From: Pseudomonadota bacterium
GTDB lineage: Bacteria; Pseudomonadota; Alphaproteobacteria; Paracaedibacterales; CAITNM01
Assembly (NCBI GenBank): GCA_026400695.1
Contig: JAPLON010000104.1
Coordinates: 1 to 30,893, forward strand
Reading direction: 5' to 3'
Length of the DNA stretch: 30,893 nucleotides
Shown here: positions 8,743 through 28,925 of the stretch, piece by piece
Numbering within the stretch: position 1 is the stretch's first letter
Layout: each line of letters starts with the position of its first letter
Made by a program: the position numbers and the translations under genes
Notes under the pieces: model-generated
Databases searched by the model: none
Seen by the model: only the letters and a program-made list of their open reading frames with translations
Told to the model about the DNA's origin: nothing

Positions 8743-10191
8743 ATGAATAAAGCATTAAAATTATTAATAAAATTTATATCAAAAATTAATTTTTCAAGTA
8801 TTTATTTTTTAATACTTGCAGCTTTAATTGGAGGGTTAGCTTTTGCACCATTTAACCAACCGATAGCATTATTTTTTTCAATATATACTCTTTTATCCAA
8901 CTTACAAATGCAACCTACTTTTAAAAATTTTTTTAAAAACTCTGCTATTTTTTGTTTCTTCTTTTTTCTTTCCCACCTTTATTGGGTATGTTGGGCTGTA
9001 AATGTTTATGGCTTACCTATGGCAATGCCACTGGTTCTAATTGGCATGCCGTTGATTATAGGAATATTTCCTACCATATGCATGGTACCAAGTTACTATT
9101 TCAAAGAAAATAAAGTTAAGTTTGCATGGATCTTAGGAGCTGGATGGTGGATCAGCGAAATAGCAAGAAGCTTTTTATTTACAGGATTTCCGTGGAATTT
9201 AAACGGATATATATGGAATTTATCAATTTTACAAAGCACACGTTTTTTTGGAATTTTTGGATTATCGCTATTAACTATGTCAGCTTGTGTAGTTTTATTT
9301 ACCAAACAAAAACGCTTATCCATACTTGCATTATGCAGCTTTTTAGGACTTTGGATTGATGGCAATATACGCCTTCGGTCATCTCAAATAAATACCGAAA
9401 CTAATGTAAGGTTGGTTCAACCAGCAATTGACCAACGTCAAAAATGGCAATCTAGTTTTTTTGAAAAAAACATAGAACGCCTTGAAATGCTCACCACCAA
9501 AAAAGGTGAAAAAACTATTCATCTTACTATTTGGCCTGAAGCAGCTGTGACAGTACCTTTGGATCGTTATATTAATTTAACTGAACATCTAAGTGGCATG
9601 ATTAGCCAAGGATACCTCATAACTGGAGCACCAAGGATTACCCATAATCCAGACCAAGTATTTAGCAGTCTGCAGGCAATTGCCCCTAATGGGTTAATTT
9701 TAGCAACTTTCGATAAATTTCATTTAGTGCCGTTCGGTGAGTACGTTCCTTTACGTAACCTAAACCCGTTTCCAAAGCTTACCCAAGGAACAATGGACTA
9801 CTCACCAGGAACTGGACCGAAAACAATTACATTACAAGGTATTCCACCTTTCAGTCCCCTAATTTGCTATGAAGCAATATTTAGCGGCGCTGTTATAGAT
9901 CCTTTAAACCGTCCGCAATGGCTATTAAATGTTACTAATGATGCTTGGTATGGCCATACAAGCGGACCATATCAACACCTTAAAATTGTGCAAGTTAGAG
10001 CTATTGAAGAAGGTTTACCTTTAATTCGTGTTGCAAATAATGGAATCAGTGCTGTAATTGATGCTTATGGTAGAATAATTCACCAACTTGAACTCGATAA
10101 AATTGGAGTTATTGATGCTAGCTTACCGGTATCACTACCAGAAACTTTGTATCGAAAATTGATTAATTTTATTAATTTCGCAGTTGCATAA
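8743..10191 (+). CDS. lnt: Apolipoprotein N-acyltransferase
   Basis: FTGFPWN, IWPEAA, DKFHLVPFGEYVP, ICYEAIF, TNDAWYG, RAIEEG. Confidence 0.96.
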   Translation: MNKALKLLIKFISKINFSSIYFLILAALIGGLAFAPFNQPIALFFSIYTLLSNLQMQPTFKNFFKNSAIFCFFFFLSHLYWVCWAVNVYGLPMAMPLVLIGMPLIIGIFPTICMVPSYYFKENKVKFAWILGAGWWISEIARSFLFTGFPWNLNGYIWNLSILQSTRFFGIFGLSLLTMSACVVLFTKQKRLSILALCSFLGLWIDGNIRLRSSQINTETNVRLVQPAIDQRQKWQSSFFEKNIERLEMLTTKKGEKTIHLTIWPEAAVTVPLDRYINLTEHLSGMISQGYLITGAPRITHNPDQVFSSLQAIAPNGLILATFDKFHLVPFGEYVPLRNLNPFPKLTQGTMDYSPGTGPKTITLQGIPPFSPLICYEAIFSGAVIDPLNRPQWLLNVTNDAWYGHTSGPYQHLKIVQVRAIEEGLPLIRVANNGISAVIDAYGRIIHQLELDKIGVIDASLPVSLPETLYRKLINFINFAVA

Positions 10192-10386
10192 AAGAAAAAT
10201 TATCTTTAAACATTTAGAATGCAAATAATCTAGCAATGCAATCTGGTTTTTCAGGGGAGTGCTTTTATAAATCTGCGCCATAAAAAAGGAAAAGATAGAT
10301 TAGAGCTTTTAAAAAATCATTTAGATGATGTTGATTTACAGCTACTTAGAGAATCTACAAATGATGAGCTAGAACTAGCTGATACC

Positions 10387-11514
10387 TTGATTGAAAATTC
10401 CGTTGGTTATTTTCAACTACCTTTTGCTGTAGCTCCAGGAATAACTATAAATGGCAAACTTCACCCATTAATTCCCTTAGTAATTGAAGAAACATCTGTT
10501 GTAGCAGGACTTTGTAAAAGTATTTTGTTTACTAATTCACATGGCACTATCTCAGCATCACAATCTGGAGATGGATTTATTGGTCAAATTCACTTCCCTA
10601 ATATTAAAAACGTTGAAAATTTTGAACTCAGCATATTAGCCTGCAAGGATTACTTACTTACCAAAGCAAATCAAGGGCCATGTGAAAATATGGTACAAAG
10701 AGGCGGAGGGGTTAAGGATATAACCGTTAGATTAATTACCAGAAATGACGGTAAGACAATGGGAGTAATACACGTTCTGGTTGATACCAAAGATGCCATG
10801 GGGGCCAACACTATTAACCAAACCTGTGAATACCTTAAGCCTATGGTTGAAGCAGCAAGTGGTGAGCAAGCTCTATTATGCATTTTGTCAAACTACAACA
10901 CAGAAAAAATTACCAAGGTCGAAATTACTATAGAAGGAATTGATGAAACCTTAGCTAAGCGCATTGAAGAAGCTTCCGTTATAGCACAATTTGACCATTA
11001 TCGGGCAGTCACACACAACAAAGGAATTATGAATGGTATGGATGCCATTTGCCTGGCCACCGGCAACGATTGGCGAGCCTTAGAAGCTGGTATGCATGGT
11101 TTTGCTGCTCGTAATGGGCAATATCGAGGTCTTTCTAACTGGGTATCTGAAGGGAAACAGCTCAAGGGAATACTAGAAGGACCAATCAATGTTGGTATTG
11201 TAGGAGGTGTAACAAATATCCACCCTCTGGCAGCTTTGGCTCTACGCTGCCTAAAAGTAGAAAGCTCAACAGAGCTGGCATATGTAATTGGGGCTATAGG
11301 AATAATTCAAAATTTTGCAGCATTGCGTGCGCTAGTAACTGATGGTATTGCTAAAGGCCATATGCGATTACATTTAAAAAATCTACTTAAGCAAACAGAT
11401 GCAACAGAACCAGAACAAGAAAAGGCTTTAAAACTACTTGAGAAAATATTTGATACCAAGCATTATGTAAGCGCCAATGATGCCCATAATGTTTTAAAAG
11501 AATTAAGATCGTGA
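10387..11514 (+). CDS. mvaA: Class II HMG-CoA reductase (true start probably upstream of 10387)
   Basis: IEETSVVAG, DAMGAN, THNKGIMNG, GNDWRA, GHMRLH. The frame is open back to 10234. Confidence 0.93.
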   Translation: MIENSVGYFQLPFAVAPGITINGKLHPLIPLVIEETSVVAGLCKSILFTNSHGTISASQSGDGFIGQIHFPNIKNVENFELSILACKDYLLTKANQGPCENMVQRGGGVKDITVRLITRNDGKTMGVIHVLVDTKDAMGANTINQTCEYLKPMVEAASGEQALLCILSNYNTEKITKVEITIEGIDETLAKRIEEASVIAQFDHYRAVTHNKGIMNGMDAICLATGNDWRALEAGMHGFAARNGQYRGLSNWVSEGKQLKGILEGPINVGIVGGVTNIHPLAALALRCLKVESSTELAYVIGAIGIIQNFAALRALVTDGIAKGHMRLHLKNLLKQTDATEPEQEKALKLLEKIFDTKHYVSANDAHNVLKELRS

Positions 11515-12356
11515 TTAGTCATCCAGCTAAGTGCATTTTATCGGGAGAGCACACCGTGTTAAATGGGGGAATTGCCCTTGTTAGCCCGCTTAAAGCCTAC
11601 AGTACAACCATAGAATACCAAGGATCATCAAGCCTTGAGATGTTTTTCAATAGCAGACCTTTTACAAAATGTATTTTAAGTTTGCTACAAAACCTAGCTC
11701 TATTACCCAGAACATTTTCTGGAATTCTCAATGTGAATTCAAACATTCCCCAGGCTTCTGGACTGGGAAGCTCTGCTGCTTTGTGCGTAGCAATAGCTAA
11801 CTTGCTTGTACAACATGGCTACATTTTAGCAGAAAAAATTTTTGAAGTAGCCAGAATGTGTGAAAACCTCTTTCATGGTAAAAGTAGTGGCGTTGATATT
11901 GCGGGAGTTATGTCAAACAGTGTTTTGCTTTACTCTATGGAAAACGGTCCCAGCAGCTTTATACCAGCATGGCAACCACATCTTTATGTTTCTTATTCTG
12001 GTATACCTTCTAATACCCAACAGGCTGTGACAAAAGTACTAAAATATCGCGATAACTTTCCAAATGCTGGAACAGATCAAAGTATGGAAAATGCTACCCA
12101 ACAAATTTATAGTGCCCTTGTTAGTATTGATATTAAAGGTCGCTTGCAGCAATTACGAGATGGCTTAAATCAATCTAGTGAATGTTTTGAAGAATGGGGA
12201 TTAATTGGAGATTTTTTGCGAACACATCAAAGTAAATTAATTGAAGCAGGAGCAATAGCCGTAAAACCAACTGGATCTGGTGAGGGAGGACATGTTTTAA
12301 GTCTTTGGCAAGATACTCCGCCAGCACATCTTAATTTAATACCCGTTAATCTATGA
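11511..12356 (+). CDS. mvaK1: Mevalonate kinase (GHMP)
   Basis: PAKCILSGEH, PQASGLGSSAA, HGKSSGVD, KPTGSGEGG. GTGA overlap with HMGR. Confidence 0.88.
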   Translation: MISHPAKCILSGEHTVLNGGIALVSPLKAYSTTIEYQGSSSLEMFFNSRPFTKCILSLLQNLALLPRTFSGILNVNSNIPQASGLGSSAALCVAIANLLVQHGYILAEKIFEVARMCENLFHGKSSGVDIAGVMSNSVLLYSMENGPSSFIPAWQPHLYVSYSGIPSNTQQAVTKVLKYRDNFPNAGTDQSMENATQQIYSALVSIDIKGRLQQLRDGLNQSSECFEEWGLIGDFLRTHQSKLIEAGAIAVKPTGSGEGGHVLSLWQDTPPAHLNLIPVNL

Positions 12357-13234
12357 TAAAAATTAGTGCGCCTGGAAGTATGCTTATGTTTGGTGAACAT
12401 AGTGTATTGCGGGGAGGTCAGTCTATTGTTTTAGCAATTAATAAGCGAATACATGTAAGCTTAGAACCAAGAGCAGATAAATTAATTAGTATCAACTCTT
12501 GTTTGGGAACCTTCGAAATTTCTCTTGAAAATATAGATGTACAACCTCCATTTCAGTACGTTTTACAAGCTTTAAAAAATTATCCTCCATCTTTTGGCCT
12601 AAATATTTCAATAGTTTCTGAAATGTCGCCAACTATGGGATTAGGCACTTCAGCTGCGGTTGTTGTTGCACTAATTGCTGGCTTAATTACCCTAGCCAAC
12701 GATGATATAAATCAATTATTTTCAAAAGTACTTCAAGTTATCAGGCAAATACAAGGAATTGGATCTGGCGCTGACGTTATGGCAAGTATTAAAGGAGGAG
12801 CTGGTTTATTTCAAAATCGTCAATACCAACCATTAACATTGCTCATTGAACTTTTCGCTACCTACTTTGGTAAAAAAATACCTACAGCAGAAGTAGTTCA
12901 GTATGTAGCAAAACGATTTATTGATTATGCTGAACTGCTAAAAAATTTAGATATGGCTAATAATGCAATTACTAAAGAGGCAGCTAAATCTTTAGATAAT
13001 GCCCAACGACTAGGTGATCTTTTTAATATAAGTTCAGGACTTATGGGAGCATTTGGTGTACATACGAAAGAAATTGAAGATTTTTTATGGGAGCTACGCG
13101 AACAATCATTTGGCGTTAAGCTATCTGGTTCAGGACTGGGAGATTGTGCAATTGGCGTAGTTAAAAACGGTTTTTATCCAGAAGGTAGTTTTCCAATTAC
13201 AATAGCACCACAAGGTTTAAAGATTGAAAAATGA
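12353..13234 (+). CDS. mvaK2: Phosphomevalonate kinase (GHMP)
   Basis: APGSMLMFGEH, GLGTSAA, GSGADV, KLSGSGLGDC. Position in the cluster supports the call. ATGA overlap. Confidence 0.8.
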   Translation: MIKISAPGSMLMFGEHSVLRGGQSIVLAINKRIHVSLEPRADKLISINSCLGTFEISLENIDVQPPFQYVLQALKNYPPSFGLNISIVSEMSPTMGLGTSAAVVVALIAGLITLANDDINQLFSKVLQVIRQIQGIGSGADVMASIKGGAGLFQNRQYQPLTLLIELFATYFGKKIPTAEVVQYVAKRFIDYAELLKNLDMANNAITKEAAKSLDNAQRLGDLFNISSGLMGAFGVHTKEIEDFLWELREQSFGVKLSGSGLGDCAIGVVKNGFYPEGSFPITIAPQGLKIEK

Positions 13235-14229
13235 TTGATAAAAAAAGTTATGTAGGTCAACTAATTTCACTAAAAATTCCTACCATAGAATTCTCTGAGG
13301 CTTTTGCTCCCTCAAACATTGCCTTATGTAAATATTGGGGAAAAAGAAATTTAGATTTAAATATACCATCAACACCAAGCTTATCAATATCTCTGGGTAA
13401 TCGCGGTACCAAAGTTCAACTATCAATTGCCCCCCAAAATTCGTTGAGTATAAACGGTAAATGCATTGCCCAAGAATCTCCTGTTTTTAAGCGTACCTTT
13501 GATTTCATAGAATTATTGGTACCTAAAAATATAAAACTGTCAGTGCAAAGCGAAAACAACATTCCCACAGCTGCTGGATTAGCATCATCTGCCAGTTTTT
13601 TTGCAGCACTCACTATTTCCTTAGACAAATTATGTAGCTGGAAAGTATCTCTTCAAACTCTTTCATGTTTGGCACGCCTTGGAAGTGGTAGTGCCTGCCG
13701 TTCATTACACCATGGATTTGTAAAGTGGCTTAGTTGTGATGACCCTTTTCAGTCATATGGCATACCAATGGACGTACAATGGGAAGAACTACGAATTGGT
13801 TTATTAATTTTCGATGATAAAGAAAAACTTATGCCATCACGTCAAGCAATGTTGCACACCCAAAACACTTCATCTTTATACCAATCATGGTGCGAAAATT
13901 CCAATTCTGATTTTGAAATTTTTCATAATGCAATTGAAAAAAAGAATTTTCAAGCGCTTGGTGAAACAGCTGAGTACAATGCTCTTTCCCTACACGCCGT
14001 TATGCTTTCTGCCAGACCTGCCATTATCTACAGTCAGCCTGAAACACTGAAAGCAATCATAAAAATACATGTATTACGACAAAATGGTATTCAAGTTTAC
14101 TTCACACAAGATGCAGGACCTAATTTAAAGCTAATATTTCTAGAAAATGATCTTGAGTGTATTTTAGAAGATTTTCCCAGAATGGAAGTAATAAATCCTT
14201 TCTCTAGGGTAGACAATCTCAGCACTTGA
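13231..14229 (+). CDS. mvaD: Diphosphomevalonate decarboxylase
   Basis: APSNIALCKYWGKR, NNIPTAAGLASSAS, RLGSGSACRS, TQDAGPN. ATGA overlap. Confidence 0.96.
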   Translation: MIDKKSYVGQLISLKIPTIEFSEAFAPSNIALCKYWGKRNLDLNIPSTPSLSISLGNRGTKVQLSIAPQNSLSINGKCIAQESPVFKRTFDFIELLVPKNIKLSVQSENNIPTAAGLASSASFFAALTISLDKLCSWKVSLQTLSCLARLGSGSACRSLHHGFVKWLSCDDPFQSYGIPMDVQWEELRIGLLIFDDKEKLMPSRQAMLHTQNTSSLYQSWCENSNSDFEIFHNAIEKKNFQALGETAEYNALSLHAVMLSARPAIIYSQPETLKAIIKIHVLRQNGIQVYFTQDAGPNLKLIFLENDLECILEDFPRMEVINPFSRVDNLST

Positions 14230-14274
14230 TTATATTATTCACCAGAGCAATTTTTTATTTTATAAAAAATCTAT

Positions 14275-15393
14275 ATGTCTGTTGGAATTGAATCAATTGG
14301 AATAAAATTGCCTTCATATGTGATTGAGGCAAAAAAAATTGCTAAACTTAGAGGAATGCCAGAGGAAAAAGCAACTATAGGTTTAGGTTGCCATATGGTT
14401 GGTTTGTGCTTTGATCAAGAAACAGTCGTTGATTTAGCTGTAAGCGCTGCCGAACGAGCTATTGCTCGTTGGGAAGGCAACATCAATGAAATTGGCATGA
14501 TTGTAGTAGGCACTGAATCATCGTTAGATGAAGCTCGTCCATTAAGTGCTTGGATAGCGGAACGATTACAACTAAGCGGACATATACGTTCATATGAAGT
14601 TAAGCATGCTTGTTATGCTGGTACGCTAGCGTTGCGCCAAGCCGTTGAATGGAAAAAAGCAACCAATTCGCCTAAAAGTGCTTTGGTAATTGCTGTTGAC
14701 GTTTGTTTATATGCACCTGGACATGCCGCTGAGGTAACTCAAGGTGCAGGTGCAGTTGCAATGATCGTAGGCGATGATTCTATTTGCTCTGTTGATCTGC
14801 AAACTTATCCATATAGTGAGCCATGTTTTGATTTTTGGCGTCCAACTGGTGATGTTTTTCCAACTGTAGATAGCAAAAAAAGTTTAAATGCCTACCTAAA
14901 GGCTACGGAAAATTGTTTTAAGGCATTGTTTGCGGATCAACCCAATTTATTTTTTGAAAGCTTCAGGTCTATCTGCTTTCACGTGCCATTTCCCAAAATG
15001 GTGCTTAAGGCATTTAAAAATCTTTCTTTATCTTTCAATCTTTCAGAATTTGAACAACATAAATTATTAAGAGACAAAATTTTGCCGTACATTACGTGGA
15101 ATAAGGAAGTTGGTAATGCATATTCTGCAAGTCTTTGGATAAGTGTTGCGCAAGCACTAGAAACAGCAAAAGTAGGCGAAAAAATTGCTTGTTTTTCCTA
15201 TGGTTCTGGCTTTGGCTCAGAACTTTTTGTACTTGAGCGTAATCATAGAAGCGGAGATTGGGCAAAAGATGTAAAAATAGATTTAGATATGCGCGAAGAA
15301 ATTTCTATTGAAGAGTATGATAAGTGGCGTAAAAAAGAGTTTTTTAAATTAGACAAACAAGAAGTCTTAACGGATGTAGCTGAGGTTGCATAA
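14275..15393 (+). CDS. mvaS: HMG-CoA synthase
   Basis: GTES (Glu), YEVKHACYAGT (Cys), TQGAGAVAM, DFWRP, FHVPF (His), VGNAYSAS, FSYGSG. Confidence 0.93.
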   Translation: MSVGIESIGIKLPSYVIEAKKIAKLRGMPEEKATIGLGCHMVGLCFDQETVVDLAVSAAERAIARWEGNINEIGMIVVGTESSLDEARPLSAWIAERLQLSGHIRSYEVKHACYAGTLALRQAVEWKKATNSPKSALVIAVDVCLYAPGHAAEVTQGAGAVAMIVGDDSICSVDLQTYPYSEPCFDFWRPTGDVFPTVDSKKSLNAYLKATENCFKALFADQPNLFFESFRSICFHVPFPKMVLKAFKNLSLSFNLSEFEQHKLLRDKILPYITWNKEVGNAYSASLWISVAQALETAKVGEKIACFSYGSGFGSELFVLERNHRSGDWAKDVKIDLDMREEISIEEYDKWRKKEFFKLDKQEVLTDVAEVA

Positions 15394-15578: not shown

Positions 15579-16421
15579 ATGCCAAAAACAGATAGCTGTA
15601 TATCTTTTTATTTACAAAATGCCGCAATACGTGGGCAATTTTGCAGGATTAGCAAATCAATAACTAGTGCTTTAGTTAATCACTCATACCCCAATAGCAT
15701 TAATAGACTTTTAGCAGAAATGACTGCTGTTTCTCACTGTTTAGCTATGAACGCAAAATCTGAGTATCAAGCAGTAATGCAATTAACAGGAACGGCACCT
15801 GTACGCGCAGCTCTTGTAGACTTGTATGACAATGGTCTCTTTAGATGTTGCGCCTCATTTGCAGACAAACCTAGTTCAAAAGATATAAGCTACAATACAG
15901 TGCCTGAATTTTTTGGACATAATGCTAAATTACTTTTTACTATGGACATTAAAGAACAAAGATATCAAACATTGATTGAACTACTACATTCTAAATTAGA
16001 AGATTGTTTTCAAGACTATTTTGATCAATCAGAACAGATTCCATCAGTAGTAATGATTGCCAGTAAATCATCAGATACGAAAGTAGAAGCTGCCTCTTTA
16101 ATTTTACATAAAATACCAGATCTTACAAATAGTAATGAAGCAAACGACAATTGGGAGACAGCAAAAATTTTTACACAAACTATAAAAACTGATGAGCTAA
16201 TGGATCTAAATACAGATATGGAAAAGCTTATTAACCTTGTTTACAATGAATTTAGCCCCATTGTTTCACGTGAAACAACTATTAATTTTCAATGCAAATG
16301 CTCTGAAAAAAAATTTAAAAAGACTTTGTTTCAGCTAGGCATTTCTGAAAACTCATTGGAAGTTATCTGTGAATATTGCAATAAAAAATATTGCATAGAC
16401 ATTGAGTGCAAAAATTCATAA
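15579..16421 (+). CDS. hslO: Hsp33 redox-regulated chaperone
   Basis: RGQF..I, FDQSEQIPS, and the C-terminal CKCS..CEYC zinc motif. Confidence 0.88.
   Translation: MPKTDSCISFYLQNAAIRGQFCRISKSITSALVNHSYPNSINRLLAEMTAVSHCLAMNAKSEYQAVMQLTGTAPVRAALVDLYDNGLFRCCASFADKPSSKDISYNTVPEFFGHNAKLLFTMDIKEQRYQTLIELLHSKLEDCFQDYFDQSEQIPSVVMIASKSSDTKVEAASLILHKIPDLTNSNEANDNWETAKIFTQTIKTDELMDLNTDMEKLINLVYNEFSPIVSRETTINFQCKCSEKKFKKTLFQLGISENSLEVICEYCNKKYCIDIECKNS
16262..16277. promoter_or_regulatory. parS centromere site (inside hslO)
   Basis: Perfect consensus palindrome TGTTTCACGTGAAACA. Confidence 0.93.
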
Positions 16422-16480
16422 AATCGTAGGCGTAAGCTAAATATTAAGGCAAACCTATAAAATCATTAGAAAAATATGAC

Positions 16481-17035
16481 TTGTATATAAATGAGCTTTT
16501 AAAGTGGAGTGCATCTATTAATCTTGTTCACGAAAAATCGAAAGACGACATGATACAGAGACATATTCTGGATTCTCTACAATTAATTAATTATATAAAT
16601 AAAGATAATGATAGGATTGTAGATATTGGTAGTGGCGCAGGATTGCCAGGCATGATTTTAGCAATTGAAGGGGCATCATTTGTTAAATTAATTGAACCTA
16701 CACAAAAAAAAACAGTTTTTCTAAATCATATTAAAAATCTTTACTCACTTAATGTAATTATTCTAAATAACACATGGGAAAAAATTAACGAGTGTGATTC
16801 AAACGTTGTTGTCAGTAGAGCATTCAGTTCTTTAAGCAATCTTTTAGAGGCAATGCTTTATGTTTCACGTGAAACAAATTCACCTAAGGGAATTTTTCTA
16901 AAGGGTGAAAAATTAGAAATTGAAATTCTTGAAGCGAAAAAAAACTGGAATTTTAGTTATGAGATTCACCAAAGCATTACACACGAAAAAGGGAAAGTCA
17001 TAAAAGTATGGGACGTAGAAAAAAGTGACAGCTAA
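16481..17035 (+). CDS. rsmG: 16S rRNA m7G527 methyltransferase
   Basis: RHILDSLQ, DIGSGAGLPG, VSRAF, FLKG. The frame is open from 16448 (..IKSLEKYDLYINELLKW) with no ATG, so the start is uncertain. Confidence 0.92.
   Translation: MYINELLKWSASINLVHEKSKDDMIQRHILDSLQLINYINKDNDRIVDIGSGAGLPGMILAIEGASFVKLIEPTQKKTVFLNHIKNLYSLNVIILNNTWEKINECDSNVVVSRAFSSLSNLLEAMLYVSRETNSPKGIFLKGEKLEIEILEAKKNWNFSYEIHQSITHEKGKVIKVWDVEKSDS
16861..16876. promoter_or_regulatory. parS centromere site (inside rsmG)
   Basis: Perfect consensus palindrome TGTTTCACGTGAAACA. Confidence 0.93.
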
Positions 17036-17786
17036 AATTATAATGTTTGGCAATCAAAAAGGCGGGGTAGGAAAAACAACATCTGCCGTAAATATCGCAA
17101 CTATAGCTGCTGCTTCAGGATATAAAACATTACTTATAGATCTTGATCCACAAGGAAACAGCAGTTCAGGCGTAGCTGGAAACAAAAAACAAAATGGTAC
17201 ATATCATTGGTTAATGACAAATTCACAAAACCCCATTCAAACAACATACATTCCCAATCTAAACCTAATTAGTGCTTCCATGGACCTAGCTGCAGCAGAA
17301 ATAGAACTTTTGCATGTACCACAGAGGGAATACATTTTAAAACAAAGAATCAGCTCCATCCAACATCAATACGATTACATAATGATCGACTGCCCTCCAT
17401 CTCTTGGTCTACTAACAGTCAATGCACTTAGCAGCAGCGACTACATTCTAATACCAATGCAATGTGAATACTATGCACTAGAAGGTATTAGCCACATTAT
17501 CCAAACTATTCAAAGAGTACAAAGTGGCTTAAATCCTAAACTTAAAATGCTTGGAATCCTTTTAACAATGTACGATAAGCGTAGCTCTTTGAATCAACAA
17601 GTTGCTAATGATCTAAGGTTTCACTTTCAGGACACTGTCTTTAAAGCAGTAATTCCAAGAAATATTAAAATTGCAGAAGCTCCGTCTCACGGCAAGCCAA
17701 TCATTCTATATGATGTTAAAAGCACTGGATCCATATCATACATGGATGCCACCAAGGAACTTCTTCAACGTATTAATCACACATAG
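17025..17786 (+). CDS. parA: Chromosome partitioning ATPase ParA/Soj
   Basis: NQKGGVGKTT, DLDPQGN, DCPPSLG, QCEYYALEG, EAPSHG. Confidence 0.97.
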   Translation: MTAKIIMFGNQKGGVGKTTSAVNIATIAAASGYKTLLIDLDPQGNSSSGVAGNKKQNGTYHWLMTNSQNPIQTTYIPNLNLISASMDLAAAEIELLHVPQREYILKQRISSIQHQYDYIMIDCPPSLGLLTVNALSSSDYILIPMQCEYYALEGISHIIQTIQRVQSGLNPKLKMLGILLTMYDKRSSLNQQVANDLRFHFQDTVFKAVIPRNIKIAEAPSHGKPIILYDVKSTGSISYMDATKELLQRINHT

Positions 17787-17794
17787 GTAAACAA

Positions 17795-18697
17795 ATGAGC
17801 AACTTAAATCTACCCTCACTTGGTAAAGGCTTGGCTGCACTACTAGGAGATGTACATACTCCACAAGCACAACAAATACCACAAAGTCTTGAAATTTCAT
17901 TAATCCAACCTGGAGCCAATCAACCTCGTCAAGAATTCAATGAAGAGAGTTTAGCTGATCTAGTACTATCAATTCAAAGAAAAGGCATACTTCAGCCCCT
18001 CTTAGTAAGGCAAACTCAACCAGGAAAATTTGAAATAATTGCTGGAGAGCGTCGCTGGAGAGCAGCAAAAGTAGCAAAATTAGAAAGAGTTCCTGTAGTA
18101 ATTATTGCTTGTAATGATCAGGAAGCTCTGGAAATTGGATTGATTGAAAATTTACAGAGGCACGATTTAAATCCATTAGAAGAGGCCGAGGCAATCAAAC
18201 GTCTCCAGGAAGAATTTAAACTTACACAGGAACAAATCGCTAGCAGCATAGGAAAAAGCCGTAGCTACGTTGCAAATATTTTACGCCTTAACACACTAAA
18301 TCCAGATATTAAAAAATTAATCAGAGAAAATAAACTTAGCGCAGGCCATGCGCGCGCTCTGATTACGGCACCAAACCCGAGTGTTTTAGCAGAACAGATT
18401 ATCCAAGAAAATCTATCTGTGCGTGACACCGAAAAATTAGTAAAAAACCACAATCAAAAAGACAAATTAAACAATAACTACTCTAGTTCTCCAATAAGCG
18501 CCACATCAGGAAAACAGTTCGTTGGTCCTATGGATACCGATATCCAAATACTTAGTGATCAACTTGCAGAAAGCTTAAATATGAAAGTTCATTTGGTAGT
18601 TAAAGGACAAGGGGGATCACTAACGATTAACTTTCAAAATCTTGATCAGCTTGACATTTTATTATCTAGACTACAAGGTCACCCAAATAACCAATAA
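17795..18697 (+). CDS. parB: Chromosome partitioning protein ParB/Spo0J
   Basis: LGKGLAALL, QPR..F, GERRWRAA, IENLQR.DL, HTH region GKSRSYVANILRL. Confidence 0.97.
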   Translation: MSNLNLPSLGKGLAALLGDVHTPQAQQIPQSLEISLIQPGANQPRQEFNEESLADLVLSIQRKGILQPLLVRQTQPGKFEIIAGERRWRAAKVAKLERVPVVIIACNDQEALEIGLIENLQRHDLNPLEEAEAIKRLQEEFKLTQEQIASSIGKSRSYVANILRLNTLNPDIKKLIRENKLSAGHARALITAPNPSVLAEQIIQENLSVRDTEKLVKNHNQKDKLNNNYSSSPISATSGKQFVGPMDTDIQILSDQLAESLNMKVHLVVKGQGGSLTINFQNLDQLDILLSRLQGHPNNQ

Positions 18698-20944: not shown

Positions 20945-22840
20945 ATGCAAACAAGTAATAATTTTGAACTTAATGAAAATATTGAGTCTAACCAAACAAA
21001 GCACTCATCAAAAAAAAAGAAAGAATCAAAAAAAAATCCTAATACTGCCGAAAGCTCATACACATTTTTTGCAGAATTACATCCAGACATACAAAAAGGT
21101 ATGGATAGCTTAGGAGAGTTTTACGCAGGACTCGCTGAAAAAATAAAGCAACCAGCACAGTTAGAACTATTTAGCCCAGAAATAATTGGTAAAACGTTAG
21201 CTGAAACTCATAAAGTCTTAGTCGATACCTTTGTCGTTAAAGCCGATGAATGGGATAGCAAGCAACGCAATTATTTAGGTGACCTAGAAATATTATTACA
21301 AAAAACCTTAGACCGCCTACAAGGGATTGAAACCGACCCTGTAATTACACCCAATAGCAATGATCGACGTTTCAAAGCCCCAGAATGGCAAGACTTTCCA
21401 ATATTTGATTATTTGAAACAATCTTATTTATTGCACAGTAAATACGTTAATGAATTAATGGAATCCCTAGAAGGCATTAATGTTAAAACAAAAGAAAAAG
21501 CCCAATTTTATATACGTAGTTTGCTTGATGCAGCATCTCCATCCAATTTTCCATTTACCAATCCTGAAGTGCTTCGAGAAACACTCCGCACGCAAGGACA
21601 AAATTTAATGCGTGGCTCTCAAAAACTATTAGATGATAACTTAAAAGCAAATTTTTTAAGTTTACCAATGTTTACTAACTTAAAGGATTTCAAAGTTGGT
21701 GAAAATTTAGCAATTACGCCAGGAAAAGTAGTTTACGAAACACCATTATTTCAATTGATTTATTTCAAACCTACAACTACTGAAGTTTATGAACGTCCAT
21801 TGCTAATCATTCCACCATGGATAAATAAATATTACATTTTTGATTTACAGCAAGAAAATTCATTTGTGCGCTGGATGCTTGATCAAGGATTAAGCGTGTT
21901 TGTAGTATCATGGATAAATCCAGATGAATCATATTCTGATTATGGTATCAGCGATTATGTATTAGATGGAGTTTTAGATGCGGTTTTAAACGTCCTTAAA
22001 ATTTCAGGACAAGAAAAGCTTAATCTCCTGGCTTATTGTGCTGGTGGAGTTGTTGCTACAATTTTATCTGGATACTTAGCAAAGCGCATAGAAAAAAATC
22101 CAATAGCTAGCATTAGCCTTTTAGCAACACCTATTGATTTTGACAAAATGGGCGACCTAAAAGTATTTATTTGCAAAGATCAGATTAATCACTTAGAAAA
22201 GCGTGTCAATAAAATTGGTTATCTACCTGGAAATGAAATGGTCAGAGTCTTTAGTATGCTACGTGCCAATGATCTAATTTGGACAAATTATGTTAATACT
22301 TACCTACTCAATAAAGAAACCTTCCCTTTGGATTTTCTCTATTGGAATTGTGATACAACCAATGTTCCAGCAAAATTACATATTGAATATTTGCGTAACG
22401 TATTTCTTGAAAATCGTCTTTTAAAACCTAACAAATTAAAAATCAATGGTCAGGGTATTGATTTAAAAGAAATAAATATTCCAATTTTTGCATTTGCCAC
22501 CAAGTCAGATCACATCGTTCCTTGGCAATCAACCTATGCAATTAAGAAAATTTGCCCTAAAAATACCACCTTTGTGCTAGGTGCATCAGGTCATGTATCT
22601 GGAATTATTAATCCTGTACACCGTAATAAATACTGCTACTGGACATCAAATAGCCCATCTAAAAATTCTTCTTCGTGGTTAGAAAAAGCGAAAGAAACTC
22701 CAGGATCATGGTGGCCAATGTGGCACACTTGGGTCGCTAAATTCTCAGGTAAAAAAACCACAACTAACATGTGGCAAAACACACCAAATATTGAAGAAGC
22801 TCCAGGAAAATATGCAGTTTCTTCTTCACCAAACACATAA
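20945..22840 (+). CDS. phaC: Class I polyhydroxyalkanoate synthase
   Basis: D.RF....W, SPSNFPFTNP, TPGKVV, PPWINKYYIFDL, lipase box AYCAGG, DHIVPW, SGH, GSWWP.W. Confidence 0.95.
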   Translation: MQTSNNFELNENIESNQTKHSSKKKKESKKNPNTAESSYTFFAELHPDIQKGMDSLGEFYAGLAEKIKQPAQLELFSPEIIGKTLAETHKVLVDTFVVKADEWDSKQRNYLGDLEILLQKTLDRLQGIETDPVITPNSNDRRFKAPEWQDFPIFDYLKQSYLLHSKYVNELMESLEGINVKTKEKAQFYIRSLLDAASPSNFPFTNPEVLRETLRTQGQNLMRGSQKLLDDNLKANFLSLPMFTNLKDFKVGENLAITPGKVVYETPLFQLIYFKPTTTEVYERPLLIIPPWINKYYIFDLQQENSFVRWMLDQGLSVFVVSWINPDESYSDYGISDYVLDGVLDAVLNVLKISGQEKLNLLAYCAGGVVATILSGYLAKRIEKNPIASISLLATPIDFDKMGDLKVFICKDQINHLEKRVNKIGYLPGNEMVRVFSMLRANDLIWTNYVNTYLLNKETFPLDFLYWNCDTTNVPAKLHIEYLRNVFLENRLLKPNKLKINGQGIDLKEINIPIFAFATKSDHIVPWQSTYAIKKICPKNTTFVLGASGHVSGIINPVHRNKYCYWTSNSPSKNSSSWLEKAKETPGSWWPMWHTWVAKFSGKKTTTNMWQNTPNIEEAPGKYAVSSSPNT

Positions 22841-27764: not shown

Positions 27765-28925
27765 ATGATTGGTATATTTGCTGCAAAGCGTACTGCAATA
27801 GGTGCGTTTCAAGGACAATTTAGTTCATATTCAGCTACTGATTTGGGTGGGCACGCTATTAAAGCCGCATACAAAGCTTCTGGAATTAATGAAATCGATG
27901 AAATTTTTATGGGATGCGTTCTACAAGGTGGTTTAGGACAAGCCCCCGCTAGACAGGCAACAATTAAAGCCGAAATGAATGAAAGTATTCCAGCTACTAC
28001 AATCAATAAGGTTTGTGGATCTGGTATGCAATCTATTATGTTTGCCTGTAATAGTCTGCGTCTTGGAAATATTAAATCTGCTATTGCTGGTGGTATGGAA
28101 AGCATGAGTAATGCGCCATACGCCTTAGAAAAAGCTAGATCAGGCTATCGTTTTGGCCACAGTACCATCATTGATTTAATGTTACATGATGGCCTTGAAG
28201 ATGCCTTTGCGCGCGCACCACAAGGTGGAAGATGTGCCATGGGTTTTTTAGCTGATGCAACAGCTAACGCATATTCATTTTCTCGTGAATCTCAAGAAGA
28301 TTTTGCCAAACTAACCTACGAAAAGGCACATGCAGCCCAAAAATCAGGAGCATTCAATAATGAAATCGCACCTCTTCTTCATAAAGATAAAAAAGGTGAA
28401 ATAGTTATTGATCAAGATGAGCAAATAACACGAGTTCAACCCGCTAAATTTGCTGTACTCAAGCCTGCTTTTAAAGCAGACGGTACCATAACAGCCGCAA
28501 CCAGCTCATCTCTAGCGGATGGGGCAGCAGCTTTAGTATTATCTTCTAACACTACTGGAGCCATGGCTAGAATTGTTGGATATACATCCCATGCCCAAAG
28601 TTCTGAAACTTTTGCTACAGCACCAATTGGCGCCATTGAAAAATTATGCAAGCAAATAGGATGGTCGATTAATTCTGTTGATGCTTTTGAAATTAATGAA
28701 GCGTTCGCCGTAGTTCCAATGGCGGTGATTAATACCCTTCAAATACCACGGGAAAAAGTAAATATTTATGGTGGAGCTTGCGCCCTAGGTCACCCTATTG
28801 GTACCAGCGGAGCACGCATTGTTGTAACTTTGCTTAATGTTATGCAGCAAAACAACTTTAAAAGAGGTATTGCCGCCGTTTGTATTGGAGGTGGCGAAGC
28901 AACCGCTATTGCTATTGAAATTTAG
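27765..28925 (+). CDS. Acetyl-CoA C-acetyltransferase (thiolase, PhaA/AtoB type)
   Basis: GQAPARQ, INKVCGSG, GGMESMSNAP, NEAFA, GHPIGTSG, CIGGGE. Confidence 0.96.
   Translation: MIGIFAAKRTAIGAFQGQFSSYSATDLGGHAIKAAYKASGINEIDEIFMGCVLQGGLGQAPARQATIKAEMNESIPATTINKVCGSGMQSIMFACNSLRLGNIKSAIAGGMESMSNAPYALEKARSGYRFGHSTIIDLMLHDGLEDAFARAPQGGRCAMGFLADATANAYSFSRESQEDFAKLTYEKAHAAQKSGAFNNEIAPLLHKDKKGEIVIDQDEQITRVQPAKFAVLKPAFKADGTITAATSSSLADGAAALVLSSNTTGAMARIVGYTSHAQSSETFATAPIGAIEKLCKQIGWSINSVDAFEINEAFAVVPMAVINTLQIPREKVNIYGGACALGHPIGTSGARIVVTLLNVMQQNNFKRGIAAVCIGGGEATAIAIEI

Follow-up and report, generated by a model that had tools for sequence, protein, structure and literature searches.

The 30,893-nt stretch of DNA analysed here (the window) is contig C1 of the genome G000 and carries five clustered genes of the mevalonate (MVA) pathway. 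Together with an unlinked isomerase gene, they very probably equip a Finniella-like (Paracaedibacteraceae) bacterium without the methylerythritol phosphate (MEP) pathway with a working mevalonate pathway of the classical type, on a mosaic operon of foreign origin that appears to be inherited vertically in three species. In the proposed pathway, a thiolase encoded in the window would make acetoacetyl-CoA, hydroxymethylglutaryl-CoA (HMG-CoA) synthase (HMGS) and a class II HMG-CoA reductase (HMGR) would yield mevalonate, and two mevalonate kinase (MVK)-like GHMP kinases would attach two phosphates. Diphosphomevalonate decarboxylase (MVD) would then produce isopentenyl diphosphate (IPP), an unlinked type-1 isomerase (IDI) on contig C84 would convert IPP to dimethylallyl diphosphate (DMAPP), and an IspB-like polyprenyl synthase and UppS would use the products.

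Gene content of the operon

Five co-directional open reading frames on the forward strand (10387-11514, 11511-12356, 12353-13234, 13231-14229 and 14275-15393) form the cluster, and their identities were taken from matches to Pfam and NCBIfam profiles with curated cut-offs. The first four genes are joined by three 4-nt overlaps (GTGA, ATGA and ATGA), indicating that they are translationally coupled, and HMGS begins 45 nt after MVD. The initial annotation had described a five-gene operon, of which the reading frames, the three overlaps, the catalytic residues of HMGR, HMGS and MVD and the flanking genes lnt and hslO stand; the start of HMGR probably lies further upstream, and the order 'MVK, then phosphomevalonate kinase (PMK)' was an assumption. 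HMGR (mvaA) is of class II (TIGR00532, 303-312 bits, cut-off 260), and its Glu, Lys, Asp and His fall at the catalytic positions of the P. mevalonii enzyme (1QAX) in the alignment. MVD (mvaD, 13231-14229) reaches 249 bits with TIGR01240 (cut-off 171) and 88 bits with the phosphomevalonate decarboxylase model (cut-off 475), and alignment with solved mevalonate diphosphate decarboxylases (MDDs) recovers its active-site motifs, namely the Ser-rich loop, Arg and Asp. HMGS (mvaS, 14275-15393) matches PF01154 and PF08540, and its Glu/Cys/His triad aligns with that of S. aureus HMGS (1XPK); as it scores 249 bits with TIGR01835, below the cut-off of 360, it belongs to a subfamily other than the Gram-positive/Legionellales type.

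The two GHMP kinases between HMGR and MVD both resemble mevalonate kinases, and either could be MVK or PMK. Kinase 1 (11511-12356, forward strand; PF00288), whose GTGA overlaps the HMGR stop, and kinase 2 (12353-13234, forward strand), which overlaps kinase 1 by ATGA, score 126 and 130 bits with the mevalonate kinase equivalog TIGR00549 (cut-off 163). Among solved structures, bacterial mevalonate kinases match the former best and archaeal mevalonate kinases the latter, which also weakly matches Arch_PMK and the Gram-positive PMK model. No canonical PMK was found among the operon kinases (best TIGR01220 score 34 bits, cut-off 166; NF040957 50, cut-off 500), and sequence motifs did not distinguish MVK from PMK between the two. 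One of them presumably fills the PMK role. A non-classical pathway, in which one kinase has another role (e.g. on other phosphorylated intermediates) or is inactive, would agree with two MVK-like proteins that stay below every curated cut-off and reach at most 34 bits with the Gram-positive PMK model; moreover, the kinase-kinase-MVD block of Legionellales-type clusters, where the same kinase pair precedes MVD, is likewise uncharacterised here. We nevertheless consider this quite unlikely, as MVD lies above the diphosphomevalonate decarboxylase cut-off and far below those of the phospho- and bisphosphomevalonate decarboxylase models, the classical route needs exactly two kinases and then an MDD, and all relatives keep the block together with its translational coupling.

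Isomerase, precursor supply and MEP genes

Because it saw no idi gene, the initial annotation had looked to the host or to an unlinked or unrecognised isomerase for DMAPP. This absence is true of the window only: an ordinary type-1 idi lies unlinked on contig C84 (13894-14355) and scores above both curated cut-offs (TIGR02150, 120 bits, cut-off 105.8; NF002995, 154, cut-off 127). Aligned with E. coli Idi, the encoded protein keeps Cys and Glu at the catalytic sites, His and Glu at the metal-binding sites, and also Tyr and Trp; the GC content of C84 equals that of the genome, and an orthologue with 69% identity was found in the congener G012. Type-2 idi was not found in G000. A mevalonate pathway without IPP isomerase, drawing DMAPP from an unrecognised isomerase or the host, could only appeal to the lack of idi in the window and to its non-detection in G008, the nearest genome and a sister species, where the syntenic contig stops about 0.7 kb before the expected position, so that the absence is uninformative. 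Against the C84 gene with its scores, conserved residues and matching GC content, and the G012 orthologue, such a pathway is highly improbable and is refuted for G000 unless C84 is a binning error. Contrary to the initial proposal, an ordinary idi is thus present, and the operon appears to be vertically inherited within a three-species clade (see below). In G001, a congener without mevalonate or MEP genes, an idi fragment with 72% identity was observed at a contig edge (L145/L026, C5:1-206), which may reflect a Rickettsia-like 'idi only' state or a remnant.

Acetoacetyl-CoA would be supplied by an acetyl-CoA C-acetyltransferase (27765-28925, forward strand; TIGR01930, 365 bits, cut-off 241), the only thiolase found in G000. 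A class I polyhydroxyalkanoate (PHA) synthase is encoded at 20945-22840; with PHA synthase and thiolase both within 13 kb downstream of the operon, one acetoacetyl-CoA pool would feed polyhydroxybutyrate and mevalonate synthesis. For the use of IPP and DMAPP, G000 encodes UppS and a single IspB-like (long-chain) trans-polyprenyl diphosphate synthase (contig C45, L129:1387-2355). The absence of the MEP pathway, which had been expected, was borne out by a genome-wide profile search of G000 that gave no dxs above cut-off and no dxr, ispE, ispG or ispH; ispD and ispF were not searched.

Several observations weigh against a functional classical pathway with the history outlined above. HMGR is without a canonical start codon, neither kinase reaches any curated cut-off and a canonical PMK is lacking, and a search of the closest species, G008, gave no idi. 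No short-chain farnesyl diphosphate (FPP) synthase (IspA) was detected in G000, where FPP primers may still come from the host or be a product of IspB. In an assembly of 168 contigs, all absences carry an incompleteness of about 2.5%. Finally, rooting the genus tree with four outgroups led to a basal polytomy, so that one gain and one or more losses within the genus are indistinguishable.

Start codon of the HMG-CoA reductase gene

The missing start codon of HMGR can most plausibly be accounted for by a conserved non-canonical start. The mechanical reading frame opens at TTG 10387, but the frame is conserved from 10273 on, which is also where the match to TIGR00532 starts, so that translation from the TTG would leave out the first 40 or so codons, which are conserved and are found in relatives as well. 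In the HMGR frame, no ATG, GTG or TTG separates the stop codon at 10231 from position 10387. A Shine-Dalgarno-like motif, GGGGAG, is located at 10254-10259 on the forward strand, 7 nt before an ATA at 10267. The three species of the genus with the operon all keep this ATA, 7-8 nt after such a purine-rich motif (AGGAGA or AAAGGA in the two sister species, at the same spacing). More distant relatives have an ATG at the position of the ATA or within three codons of it. In addition, the G run at 10254-10257 is longer by one G in a natural strain, and as a frame-breaking indel is tolerated there, translation must start downstream of the run. From the conserved N-terminus, the lack of a canonical start, the Shine-Dalgarno-like motif and the tolerated indel, HMGR is probably translated from ATA 10267, about 120 nt upstream of the TTG, and the gene would span 10267-11514. 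Such a conserved ATA start may throttle translation of the rate-limiting enzyme.

A frameshift at the 5' end of HMGR, with translation from ATG 10236 in another frame and a 1-nt error in the G run, was considered and rejected. The sister species have no counterpart of this ATG; three independent metagenome assemblies show the sequence of the window here, and a fourth contains one G more, not fewer.

Organism and support for the assembly

With 1.57 Mb, 37.6% GC, a completeness of 97.45% and a contamination of 1.9%, G000 is a metagenome-style assembly of the small genome of an alphaproteobacterium, as which the initial annotation had taken it, and belongs to the Finniella/Paracaedibacteraceae group. 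The closest genome, G008, shows identical synteny, with flanking proteins 85-98% identical and a 101-kb contig that matches the neighbourhood of the window, and was deposited as a metagenome-assembled genome (MAG) named Candidatus Finniella inopinata. Candidatus Finniella is placed by NCBI in the Paracaedibacteraceae, Holosporales, Alphaproteobacteria; the species described in it live as symbionts in the cytoplasm of cercozoans and ciliates, and the described members of the group are protist endosymbionts (2025 Holosporales review). As the name of G008 is the submitter's label and the reported GC content of the Finniella type genome is 44% vs 37.6% in G000, 'Finniella-like' is the safe wording. 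DNA nearly identical to the window was found in freshwater and lake metagenomes from about 12 studies. In RNA data, a trace of the operon was detected in one run only.

A 28.9-kb contig from an unrelated metagenome study reaches from lnt through the operon to hslO and differs by 30 substitutions and one indel (about 99.5% identity), and three further studies carry the operon in pieces with at least 99% identity. Given this independent coverage, the operon is real and not an assembly artefact. A misassembled or misbinned operon from another organism of the metagenome, e.g. a Legionellales bacterium, might be suspected from the fragmented metagenome-style assembly and its contamination. The probability of such an error is negligible, however, because the operon is embedded, within the 30.9-kb contig, among housekeeping genes syntenic with the 101-kb contig of G008, because the contig from the other study crosses the same junctions, and because the composition of the operon is that of its flanks.

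Genomic context

To the left, the operon is flanked by the housekeeping gene lnt (8743-10191, forward strand; TIGR00546, 276 bits), which is 91% identical and syntenic in G008, and to the right by hslO-rsmG-parA-parB (15579-18697, with hslO at 15579-16421, forward strand), assigned by profile matches and synteny in the genus. parA-parB is present in all 13 other genus genomes, rsmG and hslO wherever the contig extends; in G012 the position of hslO is past the end of a short contig. No empty lnt-hslO site was found in the parB regions of these 13 genomes, and the gene 5' of hslO varies among the species but is never lnt, so an insertion between lnt and hslO cannot be shown. Scans for promoters and terminators gave fewer sites than in shuffled sequence. 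In the operon-less congener G003, a protein with a mitochondrial-carrier repeat (PF00153), a eukaryote-like family, is encoded directly 5' of hslO (L115:6267-6803).

Inheritance within the genus

In a tree of four proteins, the three operon carriers of the genus were placed on one side of a branch with a support of 100/100. The operon proteins of the window are 84-91% identical to those of G008, compared with 85-98% for the flanks, and 70-81% identical to those of G012, compared with 79-86% for ParA, ParB and UvrB. Because the carriers form one clade, the divergence is roughly at housekeeping level and GC and GC3 of the operon equal the values of the flanks, the operon is, as judged from sequence divergence, old and vertically inherited in this three-species subclade. 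A recent insertion is incompatible with both the flank-like composition and the vertical descent. The operon would have entered, or been retained in, the ancestor of the three species and have been vertically inherited since.

Foreign origin and possible transfer of the operon

Horizontal acquisition, as suggested by the initial annotation, is supported by the trees, albeit with mixed ancestry. MVD of the window joins G008, G012, G035, G017 (the latter two from other families) and metagenomic proteins in a single clade of the MVD tree (support 100); this clade is nested within a larger one of Legionellales, Coxiellaceae and Francisellaceae sequences (support 97). In the HMGS tree, the window clade is found beside Acidobacteriota-labelled proteins and is separated from the Legionellales type by a long, well-supported branch, so that the separate origin initially suspected for HMGS is supported together with its assignment to another subfamily. 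The nearest HMGR matches outside the clade are Bdellovibrionota-labelled with 44-51% identity. As MVD falls within a gammaproteobacterial clade while the clusters of these bacteria have class I HMGR and a different HMGS, the operon appears to be a mosaic of foreign origin that was assembled before it spread among MEP-less, protist-endosymbiont-like lineages of the order.

A donor could not be singled out, as the top matches point to different groups, with Legionellales-like proteins for MVD but proteins labelled Bdellovibrionota for HMGR and Acidobacteriota for HMGS, and none exceeds about 53% identity.

The arrangement of the operon varies among its relatives. In G017 (L032:9696-10397), on L131 (4020-5555) and in the proteins P0013, P0014, P0019, P0026, P0069 and P0087, MVD and a type-1 IDI form an in-frame fusion of about 505-520 residues. 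On the 74.7-kb metagenome contig L131, a short-chain prenyl synthase lies between the fused gene and HMGS; on other contigs HMGS is convergent with the other four genes or located elsewhere in the genome. The neighbours of the operon differ in nearly every genome.

Whether this distribution reflects transfer or descent can be judged from a comparison of divergence. Between G035 and the window, the operon proteins are 62-73% identical, but ParA, ParB and RsmG only 43-53% (UvrB 71%). When the divergence to G035 is expressed relative to that to G012, ratios of 1.2-1.5 result for the operon vs 2.1-2.9 for ParA, ParB and UvrB, which suggests a transfer of the operon between families. Presence of the operon in the ancestor of the order, with purely vertical descent, many independent losses and no transfer between endosymbiont lineages, would agree with the single well-supported clade for MVD and HMGS that comprises Finniella, G035, G017 and several metagenome contigs, and the 43-58% identity of the operon between G017 and G000 is indeed similar to the 39-66% of housekeeping genes. 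Such a history appears unlikely in view of the G035 identities and ratios, the different neighbourhood in nearly every genome, the presence of this operon type in so few genomes of three families, and the unrelated mevalonate sets in two further genomes of the order (see below).

Distribution in the order and in Alphaproteobacteria

We surveyed 62 species genomes of the order Paracaedibacterales. MVD is confined to 7 genomes, exactly those with class II HMGR, and ispH was found in 20; both pathways were found in none and neither in 35, and dxr in a subsample of 40 genomes gave the same picture. The MEP and MVA pathways are therefore mutually exclusive in the order, with mevalonate genes only in lineages without MEP. 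Among the 14 species of the genus, three carry the operon and none dxr or ispH. No ispH was found in the whole family or in several sister families, and no dxr in the members tested; most have neither pathway. That the operon replaced the MEP pathway, as first proposed, is consequently too simple. A Rickettsia-like dependence on host isoprenoid precursors may be common in the order, given the 35 genomes with neither pathway, of which some are incomplete.

The operon type of the window is present in 5 of the 62 genomes, scattered over three families, and two more genomes have unrelated mevalonate sets, G022 with a Legionellales-type MVD and G054 with a third type. In an even sample of 400 Alphaproteobacteria, a MVD-like gene was detected in 6, of which 5 are genomes of about 1 Mb, and none of these six proteins is more than 45% identical to MVD of the window. 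The third, very divergent mevalonate set was observed at L142 (G054:C37) and L157 (G121), in alphaproteobacterial genomes of about 0.9-1.3 Mb; compared with the window, HMGR of G054 is 46% identical, and the kinase (about 35%) and the MVD-like protein (about 27-28%) are less so in both genomes. A contig in a MAG of 'Candidatus Liberibacter europaeus' (L069) carries a Legionellales-type mevalonate cluster and is probably mis-binned.

It is conceivable, though we rate it at somewhat below even chances, that endosymbiont-like lineages of Paracaedibacterales lost the MEP pathway, scavenged precursors like Rickettsia, and that several then regained autonomy through at least three separately captured, unrelated mevalonate sets, of which one mosaic operon (class II HMGR, kinase, kinase, MVD with or without fused IDI, HMGS) moved between families of protist endosymbionts. 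If true, this would represent a repeated reversal of reductive evolution by a gene cassette shared in a protist-symbiont community. The order is in any case a natural test bed for the loss and regain of a core biosynthetic pathway in obligate symbionts.

Comparison with known systems

The mevalonate clusters of Legionellales and Coxiellaceae (idi-1, class I HMGR, HMGS, kinase, kinase, MVD; e.g. L040) share the kinase-kinase-MVD order with the window, whose MVD clade is nested among theirs (97); a type-1 idi likewise accompanies the pathway, and the hosts of these clusters are also intracellular bacteria of protists. They differ in their class I (NADPH) HMGR, in an HMGS of the TIGR01835 type (444 bits for L040) that is about 30% identical to that of the window, and in an idi linked to the cluster, whereas that of G000 is unlinked. 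Gram-positive cocci (mvaS, mvaA, mvaK1, mvaD, mvaK2) also rely on a class II HMGR, whose catalytic residues are identical, and the best solved matches of HMGS and MVD from the window are staphylococcal and enterococcal enzymes. Their canonical GHMP PMK of about 360 residues (TIGR01220) contrasts, however, with the two short MVK-like kinases and the type-1 idi found here; Gram-positive cocci usually carry type-2 idi. Class II HMG-CoA reductases are far less sensitive to statins than those of class I, and the comparison of statin and fosmidomycin sensitivity proposed in the initial annotation would thus be hard to interpret.

Rickettsia has neither MEP nor MVA pathway and imports its precursors, with idi in most species, many horizontally acquired, and with IspB and UppS but no IspA (Driscoll et al., 2017; PMC5615194). 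This scavenging state is mirrored in the lack of MEP genes in the family (ispH in all members, dxr where tested), the single IspB-like synthase and UppS without detected IspA in G000, the congeners of which most have neither pathway, and the idi fragment of G001 without mevalonate genes. Unlike Rickettsia, G000 and two congeners are predicted to have their own mevalonate route to IPP. The same survey stated that Holosporales encode the MEP pathway and lack idi (PMC5615194), which holds for only part of the group in the present sample. The 2025 Holosporales review makes no mention of isoprenoid synthesis, and no prior account of mevalonate or isoprenoid genes was found in the open literature that was searched on Finniella, Holosporales and Paracaedibacter.

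With the isomerase identified, the apparent paradox of a mevalonate pathway without IDI is removed; interest remains in the pattern across the order, where loss of MEP was followed by patchy acquisition of mevalonate genes, in the conserved but non-canonical HMGR start and in the undetected FPP synthase. The closest parallel is 'Ca. Sarmatiella mevalonica' (Rickettsiaceae), a Paramecium endosymbiont reported to possess a complete mevalonate pathway that is ascribed to horizontal transfer (Castelli et al., 2021, as summarised in PMC11253213). Both are alphaproteobacteria of the obligate-symbiont type with a complete mevalonate pathway in a lineage otherwise without isoprenoid precursor synthesis. 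Sarmatiella belongs to Rickettsiales, while G000 belongs to Holosporales/Paracaedibacterales. A Holosporales/Paracaedibacteraceae case can therefore be added to this one published alphaproteobacterial endosymbiont with a mevalonate pathway.

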